From: Candidatus Nomurabacteria bacterium
GTDB taxonomy: Bacteria > Patescibacteriota > Minisyncoccia > Phycocordibacterales > UBA918
DNA length: 64,000 nucleotides
Reading direction: 5' to 3'
NCBI GenBank assembly: GCA_020632135.1
Contig: JACKGC010000001.1
Location: forward strand, 372,241 to 436,240
The notes below the pieces were generated by a model. That model searched no databases. It was not told the origin of the DNA and was given only the letters and a program-made list of their open reading frames with translations. The position numbers and the translations under genes are program-made. Shown piece by piece: positions 8,021 through 60,800 of the stretch (positions are counted from its first letter, which is position 1; each line of letters starts with the position of its first letter).

Positions 8021-8078
8021 TTCTTCAGGAAGAAGTAGAAAAGGAAAACACCTACGGGGGTAGGGTTTCCTGTAGGTG

Positions 8079-8482: not shown

Positions 8483-8485
8483 GTT

Positions 8486-9217: not shown

Positions 9218-9295
9218 AAATATATCCTAACACCAATGTTCATTTAAGCCAGAGACTTTACAGTTTGTGGGTTGCTGATTAAAGCTAAAACTCGT

Positions 9296-9319
9296 TGTGC
9301 GCGATGAGAGACTTGGTCA
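9296..9319 (-). repeat. Copy of the tRNA-Val 3' end (att-like), proximal
   Basis: GTGCGCGATGAGAGACTTGgtcac. 19 nt are identical to the tRNA-Val 3' end, and it shares the GTCAC extension with the 7805 copy. Confidence 0.75.
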
Positions 9320-9426
9320 CCTTCGCATCAACATTTTGTTCGACTTTCAGTCTCCAAAATATTGTGCTACGCGACCCCGGCGCTCGAGTCGTGCTCCCTT
9401 CGGTCCGCGCGATATATTCGCTTTTT

Positions 9427-9480
9427 CGACCAGATTTTTAATGACTGAAAGGAATATAAAAATGGAAGTGCCCTTGTGGT
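9427..9480 (+). repeat. Copy of the junction-element block (GACCAGATT...TATAAAAATGGAAGTGCCCTTGTGGTG)
   Basis: Aligns to the R3 element at 40561-40612. Confidence 0.7.
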
Positions 9481-9514
9481 GCAAGTCTCTCCTCACTCTG
9501 CTAAATCTGAGACA

Positions 9515-9548
9515 CAATAACCCCCAGTCTATGCAGACTGGGGGTTAT
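9515..9548 (-). terminator. 15-bp hairpin immediately 3' of tRNA-Val
   Basis: AATAACCCCCAGTCT-atgc-AGACTGGGGGTTATT. Confidence 0.55.
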
Positions 9549-9556
9549 TGGTCTAG

Positions 9557-9629
9557 TGCGCGATGAGAGACTTGAACTCCCGACCTTCTCGGTGTAAACG
9601 AGCTGCTCTACCAACTGAGCTAATCGCGC
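9557..9629 (-). tRNA. tRNA-Val (anticodon TAC)
   Basis: GCGCGATTAGCTCAGTTGGTAGAGCAGCTCGTTTACACCGAGAAGGTCGGGAGTTCAAGTCTCTCATCGCGCA. Confidence 0.9.
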
Positions 9630-9664
9630 AAATATTAATGTAGGCACTATCGTACCCAATTTTC

Positions 9665-29927: not shown

Positions 29928-30014
29928 ACAGGTTGGGCGCTACACCACAAGAGTACTTCCGTTTTGATTATCGGAATAGATCCTCTTTAAAAACTAGGTC
30001 GCGCGCCGGCCTGT

Positions 30015-33879: not shown

Positions 33880-34899
33880 CTACTGTTGCCAGTGTTTTGC
33901 TTCATCGCGCAAGCCCTCGTGTATCAGTTGTAGCGAGTCGAGCCAGGAGGTTTCGTGATAGGGGATGTGGTGCATGGCACAGAAGCGGCGGACGACCTGT
34001 CGCGCTTTCACGTAGTGAAAGCGCGACATGGTTGGAAAGAGGTGGTGCTCGATCTGGCACTCGAGTCCACCAAAGATATATGAGGTGATGAATGAGGGGG
34101 TGATATTGCGACTGAGGGTGATCTGGTGCACCCAGTTATGCTCCTTGTCAACTTCAAGCATGTCTTCGCCTTTATGATTGGGGGCAAAGATCAGTGCCAT
34201 ATATACACCAGTGGCTAGTATGACCGAGAGGGTGAAGATGCCGGCTACCAATGGTGGCAAGAACAAAAGAGTGAATTTAATGAGCACGATAAAATGGATC
34301 GCCATCAAAATGAGTTCAATACCAGCGCGCCAGGTAAGGTTACCAAACAAATGCGTAATGCTCAGGCGGAGGTTGTGTGGGTAGACAAACCAGACTCCGA
34401 CCCAAAATAAAATGTGTTGATATGGAAACAGGAAGTGTTGCTGAAACGCACTTCTAGCGATTGCTTGTTCGTGCTCAAACACGAAGGGTATTTCGACGTC
34501 AGGGTCGTGCCCAATGTGATTAGGTGCTTTGTGGTGGGCGTTGTGCTTCTGATACCAACGGCTCTCGCTTAAGCCACAGCCCAGTCCCCACACCAGTACT
34601 GCCCAAAATGTGTTAGCGCGCGCGTCCTTGAATACACCCTGGTGTGAGAGGTCGTGCCCGATGAGGCCAAGTTGCACGGTGAGGAAACCAGCCAAAACAC
34701 CATTAGCAATTTGTACCGCGAGGCTGTCGGTGAGGATGACCACATATGCCACCACCCCCAGCCCTAAGAGGGTCAGCAGAAAAATGGATATGTGCTCAAA
34801 GTAGGTGCGCTGAAAGAGCCCGGCACGTTCCACCTCCGCTTTGAGTTCACGGTATTTCGCCAGTGGTAGGGCGTACTCACTCCCGCGCTTTGGTGACAT
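33880..34899 (-). CDS. Membrane fatty acid desaturase
   Basis: Three His boxes: HDLSHQ, HNAHHKAPN and QIEHHLFP. Confidence 0.85.
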   Translation of the reverse strand: MSPKRGSEYALPLAKYRELKAEVERAGLFQRTYFEHISIFLLTLLGLGVVAYVVILTDSLAVQIANGVLAGFLTVQLGLIGHDLSHQGVFKDARANTFWAVLVWGLGCGLSESRWYQKHNAHHKAPNHIGHDPDVEIPFVFEHEQAIARSAFQQHFLFPYQHILFWVGVWFVYPHNLRLSITHLFGNLTWRAGIELILMAIHFIVLIKFTLLFLPPLVAGIFTLSVILATGVYMALIFAPNHKGEDMLEVDKEHNWVHQITLSRNITPSFITSYIFGGLECQIEHHLFPTMSRFHYVKARQVVRRFCAMHHIPYHETSWLDSLQLIHEGLRDEAKHWQQ

Positions 34900-34974
34900 C
34901 GGTCATACTGTACGCGCACAGAACGAAAAACGCAAAAGGGCCGCGCCTGCGGCGCGGCCCTTTTGCTGATCCCT

Positions 34975-35235
34975 CTATACCAATTCCCGTGCTTGCGTCA
35001 AAAAATCTCGCACCACACCTTTCTGGATCTCATCTGTTTTCATAAATTTCAGGTTCCGGCGATGTTTGCCGCTGCCTCGGAGGAGTTTGTTGGGGTCCCT
35101 GAGTTTGGCACCTTCGGAGAACTCAAGGGTCACGTGGTTGGTGTAGACAAAAATGCCGGTATACGGTTTGTCTTGGCTATAGAGCAGACCACCGTACTTT
35201 ATCTCCTCGCTGGTGGGTTTGTTGGTCAACACCAA
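34975..35235 (-). CDS. DUF1801-like protein; the reading frame stays open upstream to about 35328 with no canonical start
   Basis: Upstream in-frame translation reads ...TIPTITPEKFLKELKAHDKEKYAIVTTLRDLVLTNKPTSEEIKYGG. There is no ATG, GTG or TTG before the TTG at 35235. Confidence 0.4.
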   Translation of the reverse strand: MVLTNKPTSEEIKYGGLLYSQDKPYTGIFVYTNHVTLEFSEGAKLRDPNKLLRGSGKHRRNLKFMKTDEIQKGVVRDFLTQARELV

Positions 35236-35334
35236 GTCGCGCAGCGTCGTGACAATCGCGTACTTTTCTTTGTCGTGGGCTTTGAGCTCTTTGAGAAATT
35301 TTTCTGGGGTAATGGTAGGTATGGTGAGGTAGGG

Positions 35335-35658
35335 TTACTTAAGCTTCACCGCCGTTCCATACGCCAACATCTCAGCGGCACCAGCCATGACGACGGAGGT
35401 AGAAAATTCCATGGCGATGATCGCGTCGGCACCGAGCTCGAGCGCTTCGTTGACCATACGGTTGTATGCCTCCTCGCGGGCTACGATACTCATTTCAGTG
35501 TAGGTCTTTACCTCGCCGCCGACGATGCTCTTCAGGCCCGCGCCGATATCACGGCCAATGTTGCGTGCGCGGACGGTGTTGCCTTTTACGACGCCCAGGA
35601 CTTCGCTGATCTCGCGGCCGGGTACGTCGATGCTGGTGGTGACAATAATGGTACTCAT
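35335..35658 (-). CDS. YbjQ/UPF0145 family protein
   Basis: GVVKGNTVRARNIGRDIGAGLKSIVGGE...ALELGADAIIAMEF...AYGTAVKL. Confidence 0.85.
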   Translation of the reverse strand: MSTIIVTTSIDVPGREISEVLGVVKGNTVRARNIGRDIGAGLKSIVGGEVKTYTEMSIVAREEAYNRMVNEALELGADAIIAMEFSTSVVMAGAAEMLAYGTAVKLK

Positions 35659-35682
35659 GGTTTTGTGCTTACTTGCTAAGTG

Positions 35683-35871
35683 CTACTTGTCTTCGCTTTT
35701 TTCATCATTAATTTCCTCGATCTCGTCTTCGTCTTTATTCAGCAGGATCGCCATGCCGACGCCAGCCACCGCCAACCCATACAGCGCTGCCCATACGATT
35801 TCTTGATAGAGCACATACGTGAGCCACAGCCCAAACAGCAAAACGATGATCCCAGTAATGATCCGAAACAT
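35683..35871 (-). CDS. Small two-TM membrane protein with an acidic tail
   Basis: TATATA-N8-ATG upstream and a hydrophobic sequence. Confidence 0.5.
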   Translation of the reverse strand: MFRIITGIIVLLFGLWLTYVLYQEIVWAALYGLAVAGVGMAILLNKDEDEIEEINDEKSEDK

Positions 35872-35914
35872 GTGTTCAGTATATACCTAAGGCGAGGAGA
35901 GGGAAGCTCTGTGT

Positions 35915-38838: not shown

Positions 38839-39030
38839 ATGTGTGCTATTTGCGGACTACCAACTACTCACGCGAATTTTACCCAAGCTTTAGGATGGGC
38901 GGTTTTCTTTTCGTTCGCCCTTATGACTTTTTTAAGTACGTGGCTGATCGTGACCAGTGTGCGGGTACGTGCGTTCTTCCAAAAAATCCGACGATGGGCG
39001 GCGGGAGCTAAGAGATCACCCAGTAAATAA
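38839..39030 (+). CDS. Small CxxC membrane protein coupled to zur
   Basis: MCAICG... followed by one TM helix, with a 2-nt gap after zur. Confidence 0.35.
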   Translation: MCAICGLPTTHANFTQALGWAVFFSFALMTFLSTWLIVTSVRVRAFFQKIRRWAAGAKRSPSK

Positions 39031-39046
39031 ATGGATGTGTGATCTG

Positions 39047-39174
39047 GGGCACGTACTGTCCCTGGGTGCAACCAAATTTTTAAAGAGCTTGCGACTATAA
39101 AAATGGAAGTGCTCTTGTGGTGGAACCGGTTTGAGGAGATGACGATGAAGTGGTGAGGGGAAGGAGAGGGGTGT
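39047..39174 (+). repeat. Junction element R1
   Basis: GGGCACGTACTGTCCCTGGGTGCAACC...TATAAAAATGGAAGTGCTCTTGTGGTGGAACCGGTTTGAGGAGATG... Confidence 0.85.
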
Positions 39175-39435
39175 CTATCCGTATAGCTCACTATGAGAAC
39201 CGACGGCTACAAAGTGAACAACATCATCCTTAATGTATACATACACAGCTCGTACGTCTCCCGTCACATCAATACTAAAGTGGTTGCTCCATTTACCAGA
39301 CAAGCGATGGTTTCTGAGGGAGGGGTCGTATGGGTCATTAACAAATTTCTGCAATACCAACAGGACTTTCTTTTTTATCGGTTTTGGCAGCTTGGTAAAC
39401 TCTTTTTCAAATCGCTTCGACAGTACGTAGTGCAT
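39175..39435 (-). CDS. RelE/YafQ-family type II toxin
   Basis: 86 aa. ...LRNHRLSGKWSNHFSIDVTGDVRAVY...AVGSHSELYG. Paired with an upstream antitoxin. Confidence 0.8.
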   Translation of the reverse strand: MHYVLSKRFEKEFTKLPKPIKKKVLLVLQKFVNDPYDPSLRNHRLSGKWSNHFSIDVTGDVRAVYVYIKDDVVHFVAVGSHSELYG

Positions 39436-39436
39436 A

Positions 39437-39715
39437 CTAAAGCGTTTTTAGATGCTTGAGCATATCATCACCCGTCTTGAATGTGCGAGCCTTACCAGCA
39501 GCATATTCTGCTTGTGCCTCCTCTAAGATCTGCTCTAGATACGGAGTAGGGCGCAACGGATTCGCCGAGAGGGTAATTTCCTTATTACGAACAAATTGCT
39601 TGAGAAAGGCGTTTATTACGGTGCTCAACGGTACACCTAATTCCTCGGAAACCTTTTTAGCCTCTGCTTTCAGCTTTTTGTCAGTTTTAATGTTTAAAAT
39701 GGTGTGCGTATTCAT
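39437..39715 (-). CDS. RelB/DinJ-family antitoxin
   Basis: NIKTDKKLKAEAKKVSEELGVPLSTVINAFLKQFV. Confidence 0.8.
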   Translation of the reverse strand: MNTHTILNIKTDKKLKAEAKKVSEELGVPLSTVINAFLKQFVRNKEITLSANPLRPTPYLEQILEEAQAEYAAGKARTFKTGDDMLKHLKTL

Positions 39716-39750
39716 ATACCAAAGTATATACTTTGGTATTACTTCGTCAA
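39716..39750 (-). promoter_or_regulatory. TA1 promoter (TTGACG-N16/17-TATACT-N7-ATG) overlapped by a perfect 24-bp palindrome at 39716-39739
   Basis: ATACCAAAGTATATACTTTGGTAT. Confidence 0.65.
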
Positions 39751-39760
39751 GTACTCATAT

Positions 39761-39860
39761 AGGCACGTACTGTCCCTCGGTGCAACCTAATTTAACGACT
39801 GGAGGGAGTATAAAAATGGAAGTGCTCCTGTGGCGGAACCAATTAGAAGAGAGGTGCCTC
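39761..39860 (+). repeat. Junction element R2
   Basis: AGGCACGTACTGTCCCTCGGTGCAACC...TATAAAAATGGAAGTGCTCCTGTGGCGGAACC... Confidence 0.85.
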
Positions 39861-39939
39861 GCTTGGTTAAGCGAGGCAGGGGCTTGTTTTAGGTGATCAT
39901 ATTGAAAATGGTTCCGCTGGGTCGGTAGAAAAAACAATT

Positions 39940-40200
39940 CTACCCGTATAGCTCACTATGCGAGCCGGTGGCAACCAAAATCAATACCCCTTCATATGAG
40001 TCATCAAAGATCACTCGTATGTCAGCTGTCACATCGAAACTCCAGAGTCCAGTATATTTTCCTTTGAGGCTATGCGTGTGCAGCAGGGAATGGTTTTTGT
40101 CCTGCAAAAACAAGGTTAGTCGTTCAGCAAATTGTTCTTTGGTTTTTGCGGGCAACTTCTTGTATTGTTTCTCAAACTGCTTCGATTTTGCAATCCGCAT
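39940..40200 (-). CDS. RelE/YafQ-family type II toxin (second copy, diverged)
   Basis: ...HTHSLKGKYTGLWSFDVTADIRVIF...ATGSHSELYG. Confidence 0.8.
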   Translation of the reverse strand: MRIAKSKQFEKQYKKLPAKTKEQFAERLTLFLQDKNHSLLHTHSLKGKYTGLWSFDVTADIRVIFDDSYEGVLILVATGSHSELYG

Positions 40201-40203
40201 AGA

Positions 40204-40470
40204 CTATTTGTTGAGTGACGCAACTAAGTCGTCAACAGAATCAAATTCTTCTAGTCTGCCAGCTTCGTAGTCAGCCCGTGCTTCTTTAACTAAACGTTCA
40301 AGAAATGGAGTCATGCGAGGGGCAGAGGATAGTTCGAGTTCACCGGTGCGAGCAAACTGACTGAGGGTAGCATTTACCACTGCGCTCAATGAAAGTCCGA
40401 GTTCTTTGGCTCGCTTTTGAGCGTTCTTCTTGACGGTATCATCGATTTTTAAATTGACCTGGGTTTTCAT
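40204..40470 (-). CDS. RelB/DinJ-family antitoxin (second copy)
   Basis: NLKIDDTVKKNAQKRAKELGLSLSAVVNATLSQFA. Promoter TTGACG-N17-TATACT-N8-ATG lies upstream. Confidence 0.8.
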   Translation of the reverse strand: MKTQVNLKIDDTVKKNAQKRAKELGLSLSAVVNATLSQFARTGELELSSAPRMTPFLERLVKEARADYEAGRLEEFDSVDDLVASLNK

Positions 40471-40536
40471 GTACCCAAAGTATATATAGATGGTATTCCT
40501 ACGTCAAGTACTCAAAATTAGCAATTGTTCTCTTTA

Positions 40537-40673
40537 GGGCACGTACTGTCCATGGGTGCGACCAGATTATTAAAGGGCTTGCGACTATAAAAATAGAAGT
40601 GCTCTTGTGGCGGAACCAGTTTAAGGTAATGACGGTTGAGTGGCTGGAGGTGGTGAGAGAGGTGTTGAGATAA
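40537..40673 (+). repeat. Junction element R3
   Basis: GGGCACGTACTGTCCATGGGTGCGACCAGATT...TATAAAAATAGAAGTGCTCTTGTGGCGGAACCAGTTTAAGG... Confidence 0.85.
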
Positions 40674-40766
40674 ACTGGTCATGGCAGTCACTTGCGGATG
40701 TTGTTTTTAGTTACTTTGTTTTGAGAAAATTGGTAGTATTGATGGTAATAATGAGCGGATGTTGTT

Positions 40767-42068
40767 ATGCGTGAACGGTTTGGAAACTTCAATAATCCCC
40801 GCACTGAAGGAGTAAGAAAACGAGGTATCGACATAAAGGGTCCGAGTGACATGCTTGAGAGTCATGAAGCATTTGCCCAGTCAGTTGAGTCGTTGACTGA
40901 AGACCTGGCACAAGGTGTCCGTTTTGAGCAGAGTGCTTATCGGCTTACTGAAAGTGGTGATTTTACCAATCGGTATCGAGTAACTTTTTCTTCGGCAGAA
41001 GATATTGAATTTGAGATTAACACAAAAAATATCCCGAGCCATCTCCAACGTCAGCTGATAAATAATGAGTCCGTCGTGTGCTCTATAAACGGCGGTTTTT
41101 TCTTTTTAACTGATGATAAATTAGATAATCCTCCAAAAGAGATTGTTTTAGGTACAATTGTTCGAGATGGTGTGTTGTGTGGAGTACAATCGCATGATCG
41201 TCCTGTGCTTTGGGTTGATACAGACGGAGTTTTGCAGGTGACGGAAGTGATAAGCGAAGGTTATGTCACGATTGGAAATGCGATGTTTTCATGGGTAGGG
41301 AACAATTCTGGTCAGAAAAATGCAGAGGTGAAATTATTTGGCGTTGATAGTTGTGTCATTCAGCATGTGAGTGATTCAGAGACGGGTACTAAACGGGTTT
41401 TAAATGAGGAACTGAGTAAAACCCCAGCGAAAACCGATATCGTGGACATTGTGTGTGAGATAAGGGAAGGGTGTCTGGTGGTTTCTGAGAAGCGAGAAGG
41501 AGGTGGTACTTCTTTCTTGGAAGGGAATTTCCTTTTACAAGGAGACAAAGAAGCACTTCAAAATATCTCAGTAGGGGATATGGTTACTATCAATTACAAC
41601 GATCTTAATGTGAAAGAAATAAGAAATGCTATGACAGTCGGTCCTTCAGTATTTCATTTTGACGCGGAGCGTGATCATCCGATTAATCACGATAGGTCAT
41701 TGGGAGATAAACCATCTTTCTCTGATCGTCGCATGGCTCGTTCGGTTGTTTACAAAACGATAAATGATGCTGTCACATTCGAGGTGTTTGATGGAGCGCC
41801 TAAAACAGCCACATTTCAAGGTGTTACCCCAGAAGAGGTTGCTGATATTCTCAAGCAAAATGAGGTCGGTTTGGAGTGGGCGTATTTTCTTGACCCCGGA
41901 CAGTCTGCTCGATTGGCAGTACGTCACGCGGATGGCTCGGTTGAAGGGTATGGGAACCGTCATTATGTGCGGTGGCCAAGTTCATCTAATCAGCCGTATC
42001 TTTGGGCAGGAGAACACGGTCGAGCAGTACCCTCAGTGGTAAATGCTATACTGAAGCACAAAAAGTAA
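40767..42068 (+). CDS. DUF2233 / phosphodiester glycosidase-like protein, with no signal peptide
   Basis: CSINGGFFFL, MTVGPSVF and AYFLDPGQSARL resemble the NAGPA/DUF2233 motifs (INGGFF ... LDGGGS). Confidence 0.55.
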   Translation: MRERFGNFNNPRTEGVRKRGIDIKGPSDMLESHEAFAQSVESLTEDLAQGVRFEQSAYRLTESGDFTNRYRVTFSSAEDIEFEINTKNIPSHLQRQLINNESVVCSINGGFFFLTDDKLDNPPKEIVLGTIVRDGVLCGVQSHDRPVLWVDTDGVLQVTEVISEGYVTIGNAMFSWVGNNSGQKNAEVKLFGVDSCVIQHVSDSETGTKRVLNEELSKTPAKTDIVDIVCEIREGCLVVSEKREGGGTSFLEGNFLLQGDKEALQNISVGDMVTINYNDLNVKEIRNAMTVGPSVFHFDAERDHPINHDRSLGDKPSFSDRRMARSVVYKTINDAVTFEVFDGAPKTATFQGVTPEEVADILKQNEVGLEWAYFLDPGQSARLAVRHADGSVEGYGNRHYVRWPSSSNQPYLWAGEHGRAVPSVVNAILKHKK

Positions 42069-42070
42069 TT

Positions 42071-42682
42071 ATGTACACAACGAGAAAATCTTTCCCTAAA
42101 GATTTGCCACCAAAAAAAACCTTCTTTTGTATTTTGTGTGGAGCACCGTCAGTTGCTAAGGCGGTACAAGAGAATGGCACAGTCGTTTTTAAGTGTAGTA
42201 TTTGTAATGGTACGAATGAGCGTTTTTTAGCGTGGGATCCTGGTATGGAACAATTTTTCAATCAGGATAACGAGTTGGTGCACGGTAGTGTTGGGGTGAT
42301 CGTGCAGAATCAAAATAAAGAAATACTACTTTTTAAACGGGTGAAGTATCCGTTTTTGTGGACGATTCCAGCTGGACATTTAGATAAGGATGAGGATCCC
42401 AAGCAGGCTGCTACTCGTGAGTTACATGAAGAAACACAAATAAACGCGAGTGAGTTGCGGTCGGTCTTTGCGGGAGAAATTCGTGGCGATAGCTGTGTTG
42501 GTGGTGCTGACATTCACTATTGGCATGCGTATGTGTATCAAGCAAGTGATGATGTTGAGCCGATCATTGAAGCTGAGGAGGGAAGAGAGTGGGGTTGGTT
42601 TGTGCTCAGTGAGTTACCAGAACTAACCATGCCAGTCGGCTATTTACTATCTTTGTCCGAGGTGTGTGTGACTCTGGAATGA
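42071..42682 (+). CDS. Zn-ribbon plus Nudix hydrolase (NudC-like architecture)
   Basis: CILCG...CSICNG followed by the Nudix box GHLDKDEDPKQAATRELHEETQI. Starts 3 nt after the upstream stop. Confidence 0.75.
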   Translation: MYTTRKSFPKDLPPKKTFFCILCGAPSVAKAVQENGTVVFKCSICNGTNERFLAWDPGMEQFFNQDNELVHGSVGVIVQNQNKEILLFKRVKYPFLWTIPAGHLDKDEDPKQAATRELHEETQINASELRSVFAGEIRGDSCVGGADIHYWHAYVYQASDDVEPIIEAEEGREWGWFVLSELPELTMPVGYLLSLSEVCVTLE

Positions 42683-42715
42683 TTTCCTCCATCTAAACGC
42701 AAAAAACAGCATTTA

Positions 42716-42842
42716 GTGGAACCAAAAGTCCTTGTTTCATTATGTTTCCTAGGTATCTAGGACAGTAGGGCACGTACTGTCTCTGGGGTGGAACCAGTTT
42801 GAGGAGATGTGTATTGAGTGGTTGGAAGAGGCGAGGATGGTG
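42716..42842 (+). repeat. Junction element R4; carries the full inverted-repeat core at 42760-42781
   Basis: GTGGAACCAAAAGTCCTTGTTTCATTATGTTTCCTAGGTATCTAGGACAGTAGGGCACGTACTGTCTCTGGGGTGGAACCAGTTTGAGGAGATG... Confidence 0.85.
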
Positions 42843-42882
42843 TTTTGTAAATTAGAATCTTGATATTGTATACTTTAAGCAT

Positions 42883-43302
42883 ATGGAAACATTGCCTTTA
42901 GGTAAGGTTGCTGCTTCAGCGGCAGTTATTAGAAGAAACAAGATTCTTTTATTACAACGTTCTGAAAAATCAAAACTATTTCCTGGATACTGGACCTTTC
43001 CTTCGGGGGGAATAGAGGAATTTGATCCCAATGCTGAATCAGCAGTCTCACGAGAAGTAAAAGAAGAAACAGGACTAGACTTTGTTCCAAAAAAGAAATT
43101 TGGTTTTTATGAGAGTCATGCGGGTGGTAAACGTCATTTTGCATTAGTCCATCTTGGTGTTAGTAAAGGAAAGTTACGACTCCAGGAGTCAGAAGTGATT
43201 ACCGCAAATTGGTTTACATATAAAGAAGCAAAGAAACTGAATCTAGCTTTTGCGTACCCAAATGTGATCAAAGATTTATACAAAAGTAAGCTGATTCAAT
43301 AA
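42883..43302 (+). CDS. Nudix hydrolase
   Basis: GGIEEFDPNAESAVSREVKEETGL. TATACT-N8-ATG lies upstream. Confidence 0.8.
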   Translation: METLPLGKVAASAAVIRRNKILLLQRSEKSKLFPGYWTFPSGGIEEFDPNAESAVSREVKEETGLDFVPKKKFGFYESHAGGKRHFALVHLGVSKGKLRLQESEVITANWFTYKEAKKLNLAFAYPNVIKDLYKSKLIQ

Positions 43303-43343
43303 AATTGCCCCAACGTAGACGTCGGGGCAATGGAGGTTTCGTT

Positions 43344-44477
43344 TTACTGAAGAGCTAGCCATTCGGCAGCGATTCGTTGCCTGATAGTATCTTTCACTTC
43401 ATGGATGACATGATGCTCAAGATTATTTTCAACTAAGCGCTTGCAACCTTCAGCCATTTCAGCAAAAACCAAATCCATGGTTTCGTCTGGACAACTACCA
43501 ACAAGGAAGTTTACCGCTGCTCCGTTTCTTAGGATGTGAACATTTTTTCCTGAAGGCAGTTCATATTCAGTTATCATTTTGCTGATATGACTGACTCTTT
43601 TGGCTCGATTTCTTACACCTGGCATGTCCAGTTCGTTTGCTTTCGAGCCAGCACTGGCCAAAATGATTCCGTCACGCGCATCTTGCATATCGGCGATATT
43701 GATGGCTTGAGTGCCTGTCGCGCTAATGACTATATCGCACGCATTGAGCAGTTCTTCAAGCGAGAGGCAAACGTTGTGTCGGTAGCTCCTTGCTTCAAGT
43801 AGCCTGAGAGGATTTTTGTCGAACACTATGGTGTGTGTGCCATTGGCCCGAGCAGCGGTAGCGACTCTTCTGCCAATCATGCCGTATCCTACGATACCGA
43901 CTTTCTTGCCAAAAGCGCTGATACCCACATCTCTTAACATCGAATCCACGGCGAACCATGCACTTTCGCCGACAAACGTAGCTTCGACGTCTTTGATCTC
44001 GCTCCGAGCAATTGAAATGATAGGCACGTTAATACCTGTCATTGTTTGAAGGTAGCGATTGTGTCCGAAGGTTGTGACTTCAAGTACGCCGATTGGTAGC
44101 TTTGTGCCTCGGGTGCTTAACTCACTGAGTGGTTTGGCAAAGTAGCCCCCTACATCGACTAAAGCCAGGGGAAGAGATGCTTTTTCTAGTTGTCGAGCAA
44201 TAGTTTCGTGGAGAATAGATGTGTTCTCCATGGTGTCGTAGTCAAGCTGCTCAACTCGTACTCCCATTCTTTCGATACTGGCGATCACGTCAGTATTTTT
44301 CGAAAATGGTTTCGCGAAGATGACGGGCACCTCATGTCCTAGTGACAGTAGGTGATGTACGAATTCTTGTGTGTCAGTCAAAGCATGTAGTATCCCCACG
44401 ATGCTCATCGTTGGTGCTTGAGCGAGGATGGACTTGGTGACAACAAGTTTCTCATTTGAAAAGTTGATCATGTTCAT
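43344..44477 (-). CDS. S-adenosylhomocysteine-hydrolase-like NAD-binding domain protein
   Basis: GKKVGIVGYGMIGRRVATAARANG...ISATGTQAINIADMQDARDGIILASAGSKANELD parallels the SAHH NAD domain. The N-terminal half is not recognisable. Confidence 0.5.
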   Translation of the reverse strand: MNMINFSNEKLVVTKSILAQAPTMSIVGILHALTDTQEFVHHLLSLGHEVPVIFAKPFSKNTDVIASIERMGVRVEQLDYDTMENTSILHETIARQLEKASLPLALVDVGGYFAKPLSELSTRGTKLPIGVLEVTTFGHNRYLQTMTGINVPIISIARSEIKDVEATFVGESAWFAVDSMLRDVGISAFGKKVGIVGYGMIGRRVATAARANGTHTIVFDKNPLRLLEARSYRHNVCLSLEELLNACDIVISATGTQAINIADMQDARDGIILASAGSKANELDMPGVRNRAKRVSHISKMITEYELPSGKNVHILRNGAAVNFLVGSCPDETMDLVFAEMAEGCKRLVENNLEHHVIHEVKDTIRQRIAAEWLALQ

Positions 44478-44558
44478 GCTCCTGGTTGTGGAAAGGTCAA
44501 ATCTGGATGTGACAATACAATATATTCTTTAATACGTCTATACTTAAATAAGTTCACA

Positions 44559-44615
44559 GTGGAACCAAATCTCTTTATTTTATTATGTTTCCTAGATGTC
44601 TAGGACAGTAGGGCC
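44559..44615 (+). repeat. Junction element R5 (left half only)
   Basis: GTGGAACCAAATCTCTTTATTTTATTATGTTTCCTAGATGTCTAGGACAGTAGGGCC. Confidence 0.8.
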
Positions 44616-44705
44616 AGAGTCCGAACCTTATTCTAACCATCCTCTCGGACCAAGAATACATGAGTGGGGTGAAGGAAAAGTTGGCGTTGATAGCGGATTA
44701 TCGGT

Positions 44706-44746
44706 GAAAAAGAAAAAGCCCGCCAACACAATGAAGGCTGGCGGGC
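44706..44746 (-). terminator. Terminator of the PurM-like gene
   Basis: GCCCGCCA/TGGCGGGC stem followed by TTTTTCTTTTT on the minus strand. Confidence 0.65.
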
Positions 44747-44768
44747 CTTTCCGTTGTGTTGACGGGCT

Positions 44769-45953
44769 TCAGTCGTGATCGAGAGACGAAAGCACGCCGC
44801 CGTTTGCGAAGCGAGAATGGATGACGACTTCATTGTCGGCAGACTCGGTCGTATACCCGATAATGTACGGGTCATGCCCATCTTTTCTTGCTTGGTCCAT
44901 AACCAGATCGTCGTCTGTCTTGTCGCAGATAAGCATCATGCCGCATCCGCCGTGGAAAGTGCCGTAACACTCATGGTCAGACATCGGTTGATCTCCGAGC
45001 TGTGACAATCGCTGCGCTTCCTTGAGCACCCATGCCGGTTCCGGCATGGAGTCGAGGACAGCACCCACCCCAGCCGGAAGGATTTCTGTCAGTTTGCTCC
45101 AGACGCCGCCGCCGGTGATGTGAGCAGCGCCACAAAGTAGAGCATCTGATTCGTAACGAGCTCCATCCGATGCCCAGCCGTTAAGTGCTGCGACTGTTTT
45201 GGCATAGCTTTGCGATGGTACCACCAACGCCTCGATGAACTTGCGCGCATCGGGGTTGTGCATCATTCCGGGAAAGTCGGTTCCCCAACGATCCAAAATG
45301 AGGTTGGTGAACTTGGTCCCGCCGTTACAGCGATACCCCTTGTCACGCAGGCCGATAATTGCCATGCCTGGTGTGATCGACGAGCCGTTAGGGGGTATGT
45401 CGAGTGCAGCCAAGCCGAGGCAGGTAGCGCCCCAGGTCATAATCAGCTGACTTGGGTCACCAGTATCACAGAATGCGGTGATGCTGTGCTTCATTACGGC
45501 GGTCTCGCCGGTCAGAAGAACCAGATTCGATTTGCAAAGCGCTTGGGCAAATCCGCGAAGCAACGCTTCACACAAATGCCAGTTTTCATTTGTGATGGCT
45601 TTGACGTCGATGTTGCTGGAAGCAATCATGACGGGTAGGCCACCGCGACACGCCAGGTCATCGGCGTTCATAGTGATAACTTCCCAGCCGAGACCTTCAA
45701 AAGCCTCGGGAGTATTCATCAGCGTGAAGAACTGCGGCTTGCCACCAGCACCATCACTCTGCACCACTTCGTAGCATTGCTCGAACCGCCCTTCGGGCAG
45801 ATTCCAGATGTAGCCATCCATAGCACGCATACCAGCACCACCACGCATGATGGTAATGGCAGGTGAGTTATGGAAACTGGCGACGCAGACTTCCCGTGCC
45901 AACTTAGAAAACCGGTCACCCGGCTCAACGATTTCAGTATTGTAGTCGCTCAT
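44769..45953 (-). CDS. PurM/AIR-synthase-superfamily protein (subfamily not assignable)
   Basis: Start at MSDYNTEIV with a GGAGAAG RBS. SDGAGGKP, MNADDLACRGGLP, LTGETAVM and AHITGGGVW. Confidence 0.7.
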   Translation of the reverse strand: MSDYNTEIVEPGDRFSKLAREVCVASFHNSPAITIMRGGAGMRAMDGYIWNLPEGRFEQCYEVVQSDGAGGKPQFFTLMNTPEAFEGLGWEVITMNADDLACRGGLPVMIASSNIDVKAITNENWHLCEALLRGFAQALCKSNLVLLTGETAVMKHSITAFCDTGDPSQLIMTWGATCLGLAALDIPPNGSSITPGMAIIGLRDKGYRCNGGTKFTNLILDRWGTDFPGMMHNPDARKFIEALVVPSQSYAKTVAALNGWASDGARYESDALLCGAAHITGGGVWSKLTEILPAGVGAVLDSMPEPAWVLKEAQRLSQLGDQPMSDHECYGTFHGGCGMMLICDKTDDDLVMDQARKDGHDPYIIGYTTESADNEVVIHSRFANGGVLSSLDHD

Positions 45954-46139
45954 CTGAGCTTCTCCTCTTCTCAAAGATCGTAAAGATCTGGTTAAACTCA
46001 ATCGACACTATGCCTCAAAAGACATAAAAAGGAAACACCAAAGTTCAATTCCCGTCACTATGACGATTTTGTATGCAAAAATATATAGTAAAACAAGGCC
46101 AGTTTTAGCTTGTTAATGTTGGGCGACGTCGTAGAGGAC

Positions 46140-46148
46140 GTTAGAACT
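46140..46148 (+). repeat. GTTAGAACT junction core, copy C
   Basis: Context is GACGTCGTAGAGGACGTTAGAACTATTTTT. Confidence 0.7.
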
Positions 46149-46212
46149 ATTTTTGAAAGATTGGGTGATACGAGTATTTATATTCCGACATTTTACCCTA
46201 CTGTGTAACTCA

Positions 46213-46875
46213 CTATTTCCTCTTAGCAGATATGGCCAACGCATTTGGTAGCCCGCTCACAGCCCTATCTTGTTCGTTCCCACAATACTCATATTTAGTC
46301 TCTAGGGTAAAGTCATTGAGGAATTCTTCTGAAAAATATTCATCTAACGAATGTTGCGGAAATGTGATTGTTACCTTTCCATTAAAAAGCGTGATGGTGA
46401 TATTACCGTCGGTATCTTTTTGTTCTTCTGCATCAGCAACGGGGTTGCTTACAATCGCTATGAATTTTCCTCCAGACTTTAATACCCTCGCAACTTCCTT
46501 GAGAGACTTTTTTATATCTTTTGAGTAATGAAGAGCAAACCTTGAAGTCACAACATCAAACGACCCATCCTCATACGGGATACACTCAAAAGTTCCTTCC
46601 TTCAATTCTGCTGTATCTTTTAGAGTTTCTTTTGCCTCATCAACAAATTTACGAGACGAGTCAATACCAGCAAGATTTGTAAATCCCATCTTTGAGTATG
46701 CGGACAAATCTATACCACCACCGCAACCCACATCAAGCAATCTGCTTGTGCGTGAGAGTGCAGAAATTTGCTCGTAGATAAATCTTCTCCCTGCATCTTT
46801 TTCAAGATTTTCTATACTTGCTTCAGAATACTTTTTTGCCGTATCCCCACTATCATATTGTTTCTCAATTCCCAT
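46213..46875 (-). CDS. Class I SAM-dependent methyltransferase in an AT-rich cassette
   Basis: Motif I is LLDVGCGGGIDL. Confidence 0.8.
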   Translation of the reverse strand: MGIEKQYDSGDTAKKYSEASIENLEKDAGRRFIYEQISALSRTSRLLDVGCGGGIDLSAYSKMGFTNLAGIDSSRKFVDEAKETLKDTAELKEGTFECIPYEDGSFDVVTSRFALHYSKDIKKSLKEVARVLKSGGKFIAIVSNPVADAEEQKDTDGNITITLFNGKVTITFPQHSLDEYFSEEFLNDFTLETKYEYCGNEQDRAVSGLPNALAISAKRK

Positions 46876-46891
46876 ACAAAAATCCTATCAG

Positions 46892-46900
46892 GTTAGAACT
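46892..46900 (+). repeat. GTTAGAACT junction core, copy D
   Basis: Lies between the methyltransferase start and the tRNA-His 3' end. Confidence 0.7.
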
Positions 46901-46942
46901 GAAAAGTCTCGCTATATCTTCGTAAAATGAAGATATTTTCTT

Positions 46943-47018
46943 TGGGGCGGCTACCGGGAATCGAACCCGAACTTTCGGTACCACAAACCGATGCACTAAC
47001 CGTTATACTATAGCCGCC
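46943..47018 (-). tRNA. tRNA-His (anticodon GTG) with G-1 and encoded CCA
   Basis: GGCGGCTATAGTATAACGGTTAGTGCATCGGTTTGTGGTACCGAAAGTTCGGGTTCGATTCCCGGTAGCCGCCCCA. Confidence 0.9.
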
Positions 47019-47145
47019 AGGTGCCGGGCCGGCGGCGGGGGGAGCGGAGGCTCCTCACACGCCGCCGGCCGTGGTGGCACATTTATACCTATTTTTAACA
47101 CAAATGTCGAGAGAAACTAGGGTGCACTACGGTATACTCGTGAGT

Positions 47146-50701: not shown

Positions 50702-50709
50702 AAAGAGCG

Positions 50710-50804
50710 GAGCTTGTGAGACTTATTTCGCACACGCTCCGATGTCCACAGATCCGCTTAAGCATTCAATCCCCGCGGACGCTCGAAATAAGTCCCACAA
50801 GCTC
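50710..50804 (+). repeat. Hairpin element E1 (21-bp stem and conserved core)
   Basis: GAGCTTGTGAGACTTATTTCG-[CACACGCTCCGATGTCCACAGATCCGCTTAAGCATTCAATCCCCGCGGACGCT]-CGAAATAAGTCCCACAAGCTC. Confidence 0.75.
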
Positions 50805-50865
50805 TGCTTGGACAGAGACTGAGGTATACTGTCGCAACTTACTAACGAATAATTTCTGAACATCT

Positions 50866-52606: not shown

Positions 52607-52699
52607 ACCGCCAGACACCAATTTTTCACACGCTCCGATGTTCACAGACCAGCTTAAGCACGCAACCCCCGCGGATGTTCAAAATTAGTGTCTGGCGGT
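52607..52699 (+). repeat. Hairpin element E2 (19-bp stem, same core as E1)
   Basis: ACCGCCAGACACCAATTTT-[tCACACGCTCCGATGTTCACAGACCAGCTTAAGCACGCAACCCCCGCGGATGTTC]-AAAATTAGTGTCTGGCGGT followed by TTTTT. Confidence 0.75.
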
Positions 52700-56870: not shown

Positions 56871-56895
56871 ATAGAGAAACTGCCCGATTTAATCA

Positions 56896-56986
56896 TGCGA
56901 AGGAAAGGCCTCCGCAAACAAACATGTGCGAAGGAAAGGCCTCCGCAATCTAGGCCTCCGCAATCTAAGGAAGTGCTCTTGTGGTG
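56896..56986 (+). repeat. Nested direct repeats plus an exact copy of the 18-mer GGAAGTGCTCTTGTGGTG, upstream of the cofE-like gene
   Basis: TGCGAAGGAAAGGCCTCCGCAA occurs twice (56896, 56927). AGGCCTCCGCAATCT occurs twice (56937, 56952). The 18-mer is at 56969-56986. Confidence 0.75.
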
Positions 56987-57805: not shown

Positions 57806-60800
57806 ATGTCAGGTACTCGGTACCGAACGTTTGTGGTAGTCGGAGCCGTCCTCCTCGCGCTTTTCGCTATGTACTGGAGCGGCTTCTTCACTACCACCCA
57901 TTCCATCACCGACGACCTCGCCCAGTTCGACCTCGTCGGAGAGCGAGTTGAGGACGACTTCACCCAGTACCCACTGGTATCATTAAACGACGAGTACACC
58001 CTCACCGATACCCTCAAGGACGGCGTCGAGATCACCTATGGCAGCCAAGCCAGTACTACTTTCAATTCTCCTGACCTTAGTCAGTCTCTGTCACTCCAGT
58101 TCCCAAAGTCTCTCTCAGAACCCCTCACCATCACGCTCCCGGGCAATCGCACCTTCACTGTCACCCACAACGTGGAAGGTCACTACCAGAGTGAGCTCCT
58201 CACTAACACAACGGCCGCGACTGACCCGCTCCGCTTCGGCGCACGCTCCGAGGCGCTAACCCAAGTCGAATCTGCCGAAGCGGAGGAGTCAGTCGCGGCC
58301 GAAGCAACCCCCACCTACCTCAAGTACACCTCCCCCAACTCCCGCACCCACACGTACTACGCCTACCAGAAGGACCAAGCCGCCGGCTACCGCAACTTAA
58401 AGCACTGGACCATCTACCAAAGCGGTACCGGCCAAGAGACCGCCTCATACACCTTCGCTAACGCCCACCTCAAGACCAACGACCGGGGGGAAGTGGAAGT
58501 CCGCTATCTAGGGACTTACGAGGTCCCTAGATCGGGGGAAGAGGGAGGAGGAGCGGTCGAGGCTGACCTCTGGGCCCGTGCTCAGGCCGTCCTTGCAAAA
58601 GACGCCCTTCTAAACATCGAGAACCAACCCCCTGATCTCACCATCCCCGCCCCGTACACCATCGATGCCCAAGGCAACCAGGTCACTCATGAGTGGGTGG
58701 TCACCCCCCAAAGTGCTATCGACCCGTCTGATACTTCCGGCAACTACGTCCTCTCCGTCTCTTTCGAGGTACCGCTCCTTGGCTACCCAATTGCGCTCGA
58801 TCCAACCCTGCAGTTTACCGCACCCGGCACCAGCAACTCAGGTGACGTCATCACCGGCGAAAAGACAAGCAGCAACTTCGGCACCAGCATGACCACCGGC
58901 GACTGGAACGGTGACGGCAAGACCGACCTGGCGGTGGGGGCCAGTGGCTACGATAACATTGGAGGAGAGGGGAGGGTCTACATCTTCTGGTCTTCCAGCC
59001 GACCAGATAATACTGCTGAGGCCGACGTCATCTTGACTGGTCAAAGCACAATCAATGAATTTGGCCACTCCCTCGCGACCGGCGACTTCAACGCCGACGG
59101 CACCGACGACCTGGTGGTAGGGGCTCGAGGATACGGCAGTAGTCAAGGACGAGTGTATACCTTCTACGGCGGCAGTCTCGAGGGTGGGGTAGCAAACACT
59201 GTTGCTGACGATATCATCACCGGTGAAGCTTCCTTTAATTTTTTCGGTCAATCGCTTGCAGTCGGCGATTTCGATGCTGATGGTCGGGATGATCTCGCGG
59301 TTGGAGCAAATTATTATAGCGTCGGCTCATTTACCTTGGATGGCCGTGCTTACATCTTCTATGGTGACGGCTCCATCCCCACCACCGCTGGCACAGCCGA
59401 CGTCACCCTAACCGGCGAAGCTGCCAACAACAACTTCGGCTCCTCCCTCACCACCGGTGACTACAACGCCGACGGCACCGACGACCTGGCCGTGGGCGCC
59501 TACTTCTGGAACAACAACGCCACCGGCCGCGCCTACCTCTTCTACGGCGGCAGCATGGTCTCTGAGAACGCCTCCGGCGCCGACGTCACCCTAACCGGCG
59601 AAGCTACCAGCAACCAATTCGGCTGGTCTCTCACCACCGGTGACTACAACGCCGACGGCACCGACGACCTGGCCGTGGGCGCCTACAGCTACACTACTAA
59701 CACCGGCCGCGCCTACCTCTTCTACGGCGGCAGCATGGTCTCTGAGAACGCCTCCGGCGCTGATATTATCCTGACTGGTGAGACTACCAACAACCGCTTC
59801 GGCCACTCCCTCATCACCGGTGACTACAACGCCGACGGCACCGACGACCTGGCCGTGGGCGCCTATCGGTACAACTCCTCCCAAGGCCGCGCCTACCTCT
59901 TCTACGGCGGCAGCATGGTCTCTGAGAACGCCTCCGGCGCCGACGTCACCCTAACCGGCGAAGCCACCAACAACAGCTTCAGCTATTCCCTCACGACCGG
60001 CGACTTAAACGATGACGGGAAAGACGACCTCCTCGTCGGAGCCTACCAGTACAACTCCTACCAAGGTCGCACCTACATCTTCTACTCCCAATCCGGGCAG
60101 GTGAACTTAAATGAGCACATCACCGGCGAGGGCACCGGCGACTACTTCGGCTCGGCTTTTGCCGTTGGCGACTTCAACAACGACGGCCGGGATGACTTAG
60201 CGGTGGGTGCGCCATATGACAACTCCAACACCGGGAAAGTGTACATTTTCTACAACGACGGTGACTACAGCACCCTAGCGAGTACGAGTGACGTGATTCT
60301 CACAGGTTCAACAACAGGCGACAAATTTGGCACCGCTCTCATCGCTGGTGACTTCAACAACAATGGCCAAGATGATCTAGTAATTACAGCAACGTTTTAT
60401 AACAGCAACCAAGGTGGCGCATTTATTTTTTATGGAGGTGACATTGTTTCAAACTCGGCATCTTCTGCAGACGTCATCATCACTGGAGAAGCGTCAAGCT
60501 ACCTGGGAGATGTATTGGAAAAAGGTGACCTCAATAACGACGGTGTTGATGATTTGGTTATTAGCTCCATTAACTACGGAACTGTAACGGGCCGCGCCTA
60601 CCTCTTCTACGGGGGTACGCTTTCAAGTAGCTCAGCTTCAGCAGCAGATGTTATTTTCACAGGTGAATCCACATTAGACGCCTTCGGCATCTCCCTCACC
60701 ACCGGCGACTTCAACGCCGACGGCACCGACGACCTCGCGGTCGGCGCCTTCCTCTACTCCGCACAGACCGGCCGCGCCTACCTCTTCTACGGCGGCGCTA

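Follow-up and report, generated by a model that had tools for sequence, protein, structure and literature searches.

Five junctions at a tRNA-His gene of a Candidatus Nomurabacteria genome as probable attachment scars of large serine recombinases

Decayed mobile elements that form tandem islands at tRNA genes are already well known, and several described systems resemble parts of the locus reported here. Staphylococcal cassette chromosome (SCC) and pseudo-SCC composite islands lie at rlmH (orfX) in staphylococci and have CcrAB or CcrC as their large serine recombinases (LSRs). Cis-mobilizable elements (CIMEs) are known from the accretion-mobilization of integrative and conjugative elements (ICEs) in streptococci. 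Chromosomal integrons and clusters of attC sites lacking an integrase (CALINs) hold cassettes of ~0.7–2 kb, rich in toxin–antitoxin genes, between conserved sites of ~100 nt, sometimes with no integrase nearby. Here we analyze 64,000 nt of DNA (the window) from a Candidatus Nomurabacteria bacterium of the Patescibacteria (GenBank assembly GCA_020632135.1, contig JACKGC010000001.1, positions 372,241–436,240 of the forward strand), in which small gene units alternate with five repeated junctions, R1 to R5. With a probability of roughly 0.85, positions 39047–46944 are a stretch in which five degenerate integrative elements, none with a recombinase gene, have accumulated in tandem at the 3' end of a tRNA-His gene. 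The junctions are attachment-site scars of LSR-moved elements, rather than non-coding elements of a new kind.

Integrase genes that extend across their own attP are known from Mx8 (IntP/IntX) and fusellovirus SSV1 (cited in PMC4383910). These are tyrosine integrases, and we found no literature report of a serine integrase gene straddling its own attachment site. Tyrosine integrases also drive 910 of the 937 tycheposon-type elements in the tycheposon islands of Prochlorococcus (bioRxiv 10.1101/2020.12.28.424599). In 2015, the use of tRNA genes by serine integrases was described as not known (PMC4383910); in 2020 it was still called "previously unreported", and the 14 cases then predicted required proof (PMC7192596). 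Integrases and tRNA targets go unmentioned in a study of horizontal transfer in Patescibacteria (PMC12455944).

Junction anatomy and the large serine recombinase

The five junctions, which the original prediction described as sharing long sequence blocks, were all located where it had placed them (Table 1) and are far above chance: the 18-mer GGAAGTGCTCTTGTGGTG has seven copies in the window at three or fewer mismatches, compared with 0.06 expected from shuffles. Exact matches to GGCACGTACTGTC occur at 39048, 39762, 40538, and 42769, once at the start of each of R1–R4, and the full 22-mer core GGACAGTAGGGCACGTACTGTC occurs a single time in the window, in R4. Alignment of R1–R5 resolved the junctions into four modules. 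Module A (AGTGGAACCAAA..TTATGTTTCCTAG.T.TCTAGGACAGTA) is found in R4 and R5; module B (GGGCACGTACTGTCC) in R1–R4, with R5 having its GGGC only; module C (~55 nt, (C/G)AACCAAATTT..TATAAAAATGGAAGTGCTCTTGTGGTG) in R1–R3; and module D (GAACCAGTTTGAGGAGATG..GAGTGGTTGGAAGAGGCGAGG..) in R1–R4.

The homology of R1–R3 starts, and that of R5 stops, exactly at the GGGC of an inverted repeat in R4. This repeat is a perfect 8-7-8 and, among the five junctions, is present in R4 only. R4 therefore combines an R5-type left half with an R1-type right half, which is the signature of the products of site-specific recombination. The same logic holds in related loci from other Patescibacteria (denoted here by L and a number): the order flank–core–B–D is seen in R1–R3, L014, and L016, the order P arm–core–flank or tRNA in R5, L020, and L049, and both arms in R4, with the hybrids sharing just the core with attP and attB. 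R4 and L015 contain an attP-like pseudo-palindrome, GGACAGTA-GGGCACG-TACTGTCC, with outer motifs G(T/G)TTCC and GGAACC. The distal junctions R1–R3 are the most decayed, with a premature stop in R1, ATA in R3 where R1 and R2 have ATG, and an extra C module in all three, whereas the tail of R4 is intact.

The junctions had been taken for non-coding DNA, but their origin is LSR coding sequence. Read in one frame, B–D encodes ..GHVLSLGWNQFEEMCIEWLEEARxVF, followed by a stop codon and usually by a terminator hairpin. The pattern of substitution among copies is protein-like: one leucine position is encoded by CTG, TTA, CTT, TTG, or CTC, other positions exchange M, V, I, and L or D and E, and the tryptophans are invariant. 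The start codon is not conserved among B–D copies, and the sequence upstream of GGGC is different in every copy. A hidden Markov model built from distant native LSR tails only ranked window positions 42753–42860, which encode the R4 peptide, best of 2701 six-frame fragments (E = 2.5e-5). Module A begins AGT GGA ACC AAA (S G T K), which matches the conserved ..SGTAKKRFLFN.. located just upstream of the LSR crossover, and a tblastn search with the C-terminus of the L049 LSR (residues 506–580) found a match at 46771–47004, in the arm beside the tRNA-His gene of the window (E = 1e-4). These three matches together identify module A as LSR 3' coding sequence before the crossover and B–D as the tail after it. 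The block GGGCACGTACTGTCC...GGTGGAACCAGTTTGAGGAG...GAGTGG is thus the last ~28 LSR codons, past the crossover, and the block GTGGAACCAAA...TCTAGGACAGTA of module A is decayed LSR coding sequence just before it. The conserved junction sequence is kept mostly as relic recombinase coding sequence, and not because the whole ~130 nt is a recombination site. In the annotation of Patescibacteria genomes, this origin accounts for a group of conserved "intergenic" repeats and of spurious short open reading frames (ORFs).

Two other origins for D were considered and rejected. One was a host gene ending in the D peptide, perhaps a Nudix gene (Nudix1 ends ..VGYLLSL..); a search of the D peptide against 5.8 billion protein clusters returned just four spurious ORFs of 33–95 amino acids, indicating that no ordinary host gene has this ending. 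The other was a structured RNA, for which the candidate stem is lost in L013 whereas the synonymous leucine codon changes are retained.

The window itself has no recognizable recombinase gene, as had been predicted: tblastn with three serine recombinases found none, and neither did a crude motif scan for tyrosine recombinases. LSR genes do adjoin the same junctions elsewhere, in L038, L049, L066, L068, and L069–L072. Among the 79 largest ORFs of the related loci, Pfam identified Resolvase (four proteins), Recombinase (two), and Zn_ribbon_recom (two) domains. No tyrosine integrase was among the top 25 families listed for these ORFs, and a tyrosine recombinase motif scan of 440 six-frame segments was negative; both tests are crude and not exhaustive. 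The leads given earlier for the partner enzyme (RAYT, IS200/605, and Xer) were not borne out; it is an LSR that co-occurs with the junctions.

The structure of these LSR genes mirrors that of the junctions. In L049, a 582-amino acid LSR runs directly into the antisense strand of tRNA-His (..SHQ|GRLSGIEPE..) in the frame of the D peptide, while its close homologue in L066 (P0029) is fused in frame to B–D (..SHQ|GHVLSLGWNQ..). In L069–L072 the LSR gene is fused to the tRNA-His 3' end and lies between cargo and a tRNA-His–YibE/F–MscL segment, which is also the chromosomal context of the window. At least 269 proteins belong to this LSR family, most of them from Patescibacteria. Antisense-tRNA read-through (..GRLPGIEPE.., in which G[IVL]E[PL] is the translated T-arm) ends 54 of 114 members, and at least 23 of the 114 end in a native tail, ..G.GWN..E..I..W.., homologous to D. 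The Pfam domains recorded for the family are Resolvase (in most), Recombinase (in many), and Zn_ribbon_recom (in one, P0070). A more distant member of 620 amino acids with a native tail was observed in L067 (European Nucleotide Archive ERZ25073233 contig_108, 1–21863), beside a TraG/VirD4-like coupling protein, a relaxase, and NikA-like, Rep_O, RadC, and D12 methyltransferase genes; these conjugation and replication neighbors indicate that the family also serves ICE- or plasmid-like elements.

L068, an 8907-nt contig from a metagenome-assembled genome (MAG; GCA_020428855.1, JAGQMF010000033.1), is a candidate for a complete circular LSR element. Its last 77 nt are exactly its first 77 nt, and it consists of an LSR 3' end, B–D, a ThiF/E2-type module, an HTH–M78 peptidase pair, and small ORFs, ending inside the LSR gene. 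When the contig is closed, it encodes a 588-amino acid LSR ending ..SHQGHVLSLGWNQFEEVCIDWLEEARVCLRA*, whose reading frame crosses the core. The order of cargo downstream of B–D in L019 (ThiF, HTH, M78 peptidase, and unannotated ORFs) is the same as in L068, which suggests that L019 is an L068-type element in integrated form; the L019 locus stops at 8 kb, before an LSR would come into view.

The tRNA-His anchor and the accretion model

The original prediction ended the array at R5 (44615), but the island reaches the tRNA-His gene. A tRNA-His(GTG) gene lies downstream of B–D copies in 16 loci, convergent and in constant relative orientation. An A-type arm is joined directly to the tRNA-His 3' end in L020 (..CATTAGGGC|GGCTACCGGGAATCGAACC), and the tRNA-His gene of the window is preceded by a hairpin-bearing arm (..tatatcttcgtaaaatgaagatattttctttg|GGGC) that also precedes B–D in L014, L016, and L017 and tRNA-His in L033, L047, and L062. 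L017 has diverged B copies (GGGCGACTACCGACC) that share a 12-nt match with the antisense 3' end of tRNA-His (GGGCGGCTACCGGG). The anchoring in related loci and the arm in the window together identify the array as an island at tRNA-His that runs from R1 to about 46944.

The two kinds of arm differ in a manner typical of serine integrases. Counted from the first G of GGGC, the outer GAAC motif is 23 nt away in 61 of 62 P' arms (those on the element side) and 18 nt away in all 20 tRNA-His arms. In serine integrases, the motif for the zinc-ribbon domain is 5 bp nearer the center in attB than in attP (PMC3783163), and the pairing of an R4-type site with tRNA-His thus obeys the 5-bp rule. The crossover dinucleotide is probably GG or GC of GGGC. 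A crossover at GC would put GGGTGGAAC (attP) at positions 16–24 and GAATCGAAC (attB) at 11–19, which would agree with the Listeria integrase model.

The same junctions are widespread in Patescibacteria. A scan of one genome per species with the pattern GGCACGTACTGTC-N4-5-GGTGSRACC identified eight Patescibacteria MAGs of different classes (Paceibacteria, Nomurabacteria, Saccharibacteria, Absconditabacterales, and other Patescibacteria), and a metagenome scan with a related pattern added 44 further loci. The junctions, the relBE cassettes, and the association with tRNA-His are found again among ~60 loci from other Patescibacteria, some of which carry the LSR. Loci from both scans are of the B–D type without C, and many hold two to four copies, 0.7–2 kb apart, between unrelated small cargo genes in both orientations. 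Viral contigs had no match to either junction pattern and one isolated match to the 18-mer. The relBE1-type cassette is flanked by B–D junctions in eight other loci and the relBE2-type cassette by B–D copies in L028, in each case with boundaries at the core. The relBE units are thus discrete, which suggests that they may be captured and redistributed in trans. These recurrent cassettes in unrelated Patescibacteria, the boundaries fixed at GGGC, the joining of both half-types in R4, and the LSR beside the same junctions elsewhere uphold the prediction that the junctions are recombination or mobilization sites whose recombinase lies outside the window. We also observed that R2 (window 39833–39930) and the D arms of L014, L017, L023, L025, and L042 form one D-arm subtype, in which GGTGGAACCA at the start of D is mirrored ~70–80 nt downstream by ..AATGGTTCCACTGGGTCGGTAG.., a long-range inverted repeat around the tail-coding region, perhaps an RNA hairpin or what is left of an inverted half-site.

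We propose that the elements would have been mobilized by an LSR of about 580 amino acids whose gene lies at the right end of the element and crosses the attP of that element; beyond the crossover, at the left end of the element, would come the last ~28 codons (..G-H-V-L-S-L-G-W-N-Q-F-E-E-M-C-I-E-W-L-E-E-A-R-x-V-F-stop), followed by the terminator. A circular element with attP (LSR 3' end, GGGC, and B–D arm) would recombine with attB, the antisense tRNA-His 3' end (GGGC-GGCTACCGGGAATCGAACC). Integration would keep the tRNA intact, exchange the conserved C-terminal helix of the LSR for antisense-tRNA read-through, and produce attL (left flank, core, and B–D) and attR (LSR 3' end, core, and tRNA). 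Newer elements would enter on the tRNA side and displace older ones, forming internal junctions of old P arm, core, and new B–D, and deletion of the LSR gene would leave cargo-only units still bounded by scars. R1–R3 would then be junctions of attL type, R4 a P–core–P' hybrid, and R5 a P–core half. This order of arrival would agree with the position of LSR-bearing elements beside the tRNA in L049 and L069–L072. Units without an LSR gene would presumably be mobilized in trans.

Several points weigh against this account. Canonical LSRs recombine only attP with attB, and not attP with attR. Tandem arrays would need an attP × attR-like reaction, co-integrates, or homologous exchange, and the first of these would presuppose an LSR tolerant of attP × attR-type reactions. 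The 64-kb window lacks an LSR gene. The C unit is outside what the model accounts for, the right ends of E1 and E2 (the units are numbered E1–E5; Table 1) are very short arms with scant likeness to a P half-site, and E5 has a left arm that is hardly recognizable and an AIR-synthase-like gene with core-like GC content. The LSR of L038 enters B–D in the +1 frame and not in the frame of the tail. The terminal overlap of L068 stops exactly at GGGC and may reflect a branch in the assembly graph (integrated versus circular or tandem forms), and hence is not proof of a free circle; the junction of LSR 3' end and B–D exists in the L068 sample whether it comes from a circle or from a graph branch. Near-identical contigs from other samples all carry the same array, with no sign of current mobility. 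Presence or absence of single cassettes at the junction cores, to which the original prediction had looked in strain comparisons, is not seen among near-identical strains; boundaries at the core are found in other loci.

A local segmental duplication of an intergenic region bearing a promoter or terminator, with gene conversion and without site-specific recombination, would fit the C unit common to R1–R3, the location of R1–R3 beside two paralogous relBE pairs with homologous promoter regions, and the lack of cassette polymorphism among near-identical strains. A single segmental duplication was also what the original prediction had set against its own reading. However, the same junction is present in about 60 loci of other Patescibacteria classes beside unrelated cargo, each relBE type is found alone between such junctions elsewhere, the boundaries lie at one nucleotide-precise core, and the complementary half in R4 and R5 is not predicted by duplication. 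The distribution across genomes refutes duplication as the sole explanation, and we regard this reading as improbable; duplication may have made a local contribution, for example through unequal crossing-over between R copies. It is very unlikely that the junctions are instead conserved for a function of their own, as a gene (for a small RNA or a ~30-amino acid peptide) or as a regulatory module of each cassette. D does show protein-like conservation, an ATG is supplied by the C unit in R1 and R2 and precedes SRTVG in R5, and terminator hairpins follow D in many loci. Yet most copies lack a start codon, premature stops or frameshifts occur in R1, L013, and L018-4848, the cluster search returned only the spurious short ORFs described above, and the peptide is the LSR C-terminus in L066 and L068. 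Rfam has no match to the junctions: Rfam 15 identified only tRNAs in the whole window at the gathering threshold, and likewise in 38900–47100 at E ≤ 1.

Two other readings retain site-specific recombination and assign it to a tyrosine recombinase. One takes the island for a classical tRNA island array built by a tyrosine integrase, with the nearby serine recombinases as cargo or resolvases. Genes for tRNAs are classic targets of such integrases, and for a long time serine integrases were believed to avoid tRNA genes (PMC4383910; PMC7192596); the tRNA-His anchor also agrees with Islander-type criteria, although what the repeat shares is limited to GGGC and a motif resembling the T-arm (or, in the L017 variants, to 12 nt) and the usual long direct repeat of a tRNA fragment is absent. 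The Pfam and motif searches described above, both crude, were negative. In addition, the LSR ORF is continuous with the site in L049, L066, L068, and L069–L072, about half of the family ORFs (54/114) read into antisense tRNA, and the 5-bp motif shift is an LSR hallmark, all of which makes a tyrosine integrase very improbable. The other reading is an integron-like cassette array without an integrase (a CALIN), with folded attC-type sites and an IntI-type tyrosine recombinase. It would account for small cassettes, toxin–antitoxin modules, conserved junctions of ~100–130 nt, and an integrase that is not nearby. However, the junction is relic LSR coding sequence with protein-like substitutions and not an imperfect palindrome with R''/L''–L'/R' boxes; inspection of R1–R5 for attC boxes (RYYYAAC and GTTRRRY, in the order R''–L''...L'–R') revealed no paired set, and the 8-7-8 core repeat is the only palindrome, in R4 alone. 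The cassettes are in both orientations with their own promoters, and the arrays are anchored at tRNA-His and not at attI/intI. No IntI-type or other tyrosine recombinase was detected in the about 60 related loci by two crude tests, and serine recombinases were found there. The CALIN reading is contradicted by the LSR–junction fusions, and we consider it exceedingly unlikely.

Two narrower candidates were rejected as well. A promoter or small-RNA reading of TATAAAAATGG... does not agree with the location of its copies, which mostly face the 3' ends of convergent genes, and Rfam gave no match. In a dif/Xer reading, as for integrative mobile elements exploiting Xer (IMEX), a 28-bp 11-6-11 dif-like site would be present; by inspection, no palindromic partner arm accompanies the TTATGTTTCCT stretch of the A arm.

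Gene content of the island and other repeats in the window

The island contains five recombinase-less units between R1 (39047) and the tRNA-His 3' end (~46944). The coordinates of its junctions, cargo genes, and anchor are given in Table 1, together with copies of the C unit elsewhere in the window.

Table 1. Features of the tRNA-His island and C units in the window.
Feature	Position	Strand	Description
R1, leftmost attL-type junction	39047–39176	+	Core GGGC 39047–39050; P' arm B 39047–39061; nested C unit 39069–39122; D, decayed LSR-tail coding remnant, 39120–39156, premature TGA
E1 cargo	39175–39715	−	relE1 39175–39435; relB1 39437–39715 (Pfam)
R2, attL-type junction	39761–39896	+	Core (A)GGC; B 39761–39775; C unit 39783–39835; D remnant ..WRNQLEERCLAWLSEAGACFR*, end at 39896
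E2 cargo	39940–40470	−	relE2 39940–40200; relB2 40204–40470 (Pfam)
R3, attL-type junction	40537–40673	+	B 40537–40551; C unit 40559–40612; D remnant ..WRNQFKVMTVEWLEVVREVLR*, stop codon 40671–40673
E3 cargo	40767–42682	+	NAGPA-like 433-amino acid protein 40767–42068; Zn-ribbon Nudix 42071–42682
R4, intact attP-like hybrid	42715–42863	+	A arm 42715–42767, decayed LSR 3' coding sequence ..SGTK...; inverted repeat GGACAGTA-GGGCACG-TACTGTC 42760–42782; core GGGC 42768–42771; B–D 42768–42863 encodes GHVLSLGWNQFEEMCIEWLEEARMVFCKLES*
E4 cargo	42883–44477		Nudix 42883–43302 (+); AdoHcyase-NAD/2-hydroxyacid-dehydrogenase-like 43344–44477 (−)
R5, attR-type half	44558–44614	+	A arm and core GGGC 44611–44614, where homology ends
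E5, inferred unit	44615–46944		AIR-synthase-related gene 44769–45953 (−); methyltransferase 46213–46875 (−); decayed A-type "x" arm with hairpin, about 46880–46944, abutting tRNA
tRNA-His(GTG), attB B' arm	46943–47017	−	3' end (reverse complement GGGCGGCTACCGGGAATCGAACC) bears core and shifted GAAC motif
Solitary C unit	9427–9481	+	Beside tRNA-Val, outside the array
Solitary C unit	29943–30001	−	In hairpin loop between two convergent genes
Partial C unit	56969–56986		

Pfam agrees with the gene calls made from the sequence alone (two RelE/RelB pairs, a DUF2233-like and Zn-ribbon Nudix pair, and a Nudix and SAHH-like pair) and identifies the toxin–antitoxin pairs as two YafQ/ParE-RelE genes with RelB. 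A gene similar to the AdoHcyase-NAD protein of E4 is located at the far end of the LSR-bearing island L069. E5 is delimited less surely than E1–E4, and its x arm is homologous to arms that lie ahead of B–D or tRNA-His in L014, L016, L017, L033, L047, and L062. Consistent with the original prediction, the junctions are more alike than the adjoining genes: R1, R2, and R3 are 72–87% identical to one another at the nucleotide level, compared with 62% for relE1 and relE2 and 58% for relB1 and relB2 (41% and 44% identity, respectively, at the amino acid level). The block is also richer in AT than the core, as had been judged by eye, with a GC content of 0.42–0.47 over 39–45 kb versus about 0.50–0.56 in the flanks. 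A strain-level difference was seen outside the array, upstream of znuABC (window 34500–35900): the NCBI relative L005 has DUF1801 and YbjQ genes at a position where the strain of the window has a 205-amino acid ORF and a fatty-acid desaturase.

The block TATAAAAATGGAAGTGCTCTTGTGG, which had been counted among the elements of the array, is part of a separate, dispersed C unit of ~55 nt that is nested in R1–R3 and has copies elsewhere in the window. The C unit is also tandemly repeated in L014 (6380–6451 and 7670–7816, minus strand). It ends in GGAAGTGCTCTTGTGGTG and contains a CAAGAG...CTCTTG stem that is conserved and that, in R2 and the 9427 copy, seems to have undergone compensatory changes. 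The copies in R1–R3 and L014 separate the inner motif of the P' arm from the outer one. At its 3' end the C unit resembles the end of B and at its 5' end the start of D; it is perhaps a small mobile repeat, or else an internal duplication that has diverged. Rfam has no match to the C unit. Short tandem repeats (gcgaaggaaaggcctccgcaa / aggcctccgcaatct) at 56880–56968 lie directly upstream of the partial C unit and of a gene that starts at 57018.

The region 7600–9630 appears to be a second site of accretion. Copies of the 3' end of a tRNA-Val gene (9556–9629, minus strand) occur there as GTG(A/C)GCGATGAGAGACTTGGTCAC at 7803–7826 and 9297–9320, and the region has a GC content of 0.39–0.43 and a methyltransferase-like ORF. 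The sequence GTGC.C.ATGTGGGACGA.GTTAGAACTT occurs twice (7992–8036 and 8454–8498) and translates as ..MWDDVRTF..; a similar ..MWEDFKTF.. lies beside the A arm of L020, and the peptide may be the tail of a sister recombinase family. An arm that recurs at 7860–7940 and 9360–9400 (..cactcgttcgcaagctcacatcg.tccgg.cttcgattccc..hairpin..tagccgccc) is also found upstream of the core in L013, L017, L019, L020, L034, L040, L053, and L054. It resembles a pseudo-tRNA 3' half, with its last bases matching the 3' end of the neighboring tRNA (His in the related loci, Val in the window), and may be the attachment arm of another element family.

Two further features of the window were observed. A 76-nt sequence occurs in two copies (50706–50808 and 52607–52699) that are 80% identical, each within its own inverted repeat of 24–25 nt, and it has no Rfam match at the gathering threshold. 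The region 58800–64000 contains a very long ORF with tandem repeats of ~180 nt, FG-GAP/VCBS-like units (..GDFNADGTDDLAVGA..), and a GC content of 0.55–0.60, which probably encodes a giant surface protein.

Comparison with known systems

What is unusual in this system is the LSR on a tRNA target, the gene that straddles its own attachment site, and the wide spread in Patescibacteria, whose mobile genetic elements and genetic tools are poorly known. From the comparative data, attP, attB, attL, and attR are defined computationally for a large natural family of serine integrases whose shared target, tRNA-His, is conserved and universal. These sites could be of direct use in the genome engineering of Patescibacteria. 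The system also allows one to ask whether the swap of the C-terminal tail governs the directionality of an integrase. A more far-reaching idea, tentative and open to considerable doubt, is that the junctions belong to a serine-recombinase-based, integron-like cassette system of Patescibacteria. Its LSRs would target antisense tRNA 3' ends from an attP within their own ORF, and the replacement of the C-terminal helix (GWNxxExxIxxW) by tRNA-encoded residues could be a switch of activity or directionality. Recombinase-less cassettes of less than 1 kb, such as the ~0.7-kb relBE units, would be taken up, stored, and passed on in trans among distantly related ultra-small bacteria.

The closest working analogues appear to be the SCC and pseudo-SCC composite islands. 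These likewise have serine-recombinase elements at the 3' end of one conserved gene, in tandem and with short att repeats between them, and include recombinase-less units movable only with a recombinase in trans. The target here, however, is an antisense tRNA 3' end and not a protein gene, the hosts are Patescibacteria, and there is a single LSR of ~580 amino acids whose ORF crosses attP. The crossover within the integrase ORF is shared with Mx8 and SSV1, in which integration at a tRNA gene alters the C-terminus (Mx8) or splits the gene (SSV1) and integrase fragments remain at island borders. Those are tyrosine recombinases with a long tRNA-identical core, in contrast to the LSR, 4-nt shared core, and LSR-type half-sites found here. 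An ORF spanning attP is seen in closed L068, in the L066 fusion, and in the read-through of 54 of 114 family members, which makes this an analogy with Mx8 and SSV1 and not membership in their group.

CIMEs and tycheposons resemble the island in that repeated integration at one tRNA site displaces older elements inward and leaves integrase-less remnants between att scars, with cargo that is mainly defense and niche genes. They differ in having tyrosine integrases and tRNA-fragment repeats, the repeat here being a fragment of the recombinase gene. Integrons and CALINs share the array of small, toxin–antitoxin-rich cassettes between conserved recombination sites. The island is distinguished from them by another recombinase family, by the lack of an attC fold and of an attI/Pc platform, by its tRNA anchor, and by junctions that come from coding sequence. 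Finally, the phage serine integrases A118/LI, Bxb1, and phiC31 have a pseudo-palindromic attP with inner and outer motifs and the 5-bp shift (PMC3783163), as found here. The known ones integrate into protein genes or between genes, and their attP is not part of the int ORF, whereas in the family described here the target is tRNA-His and attP lies within the recombinase gene.

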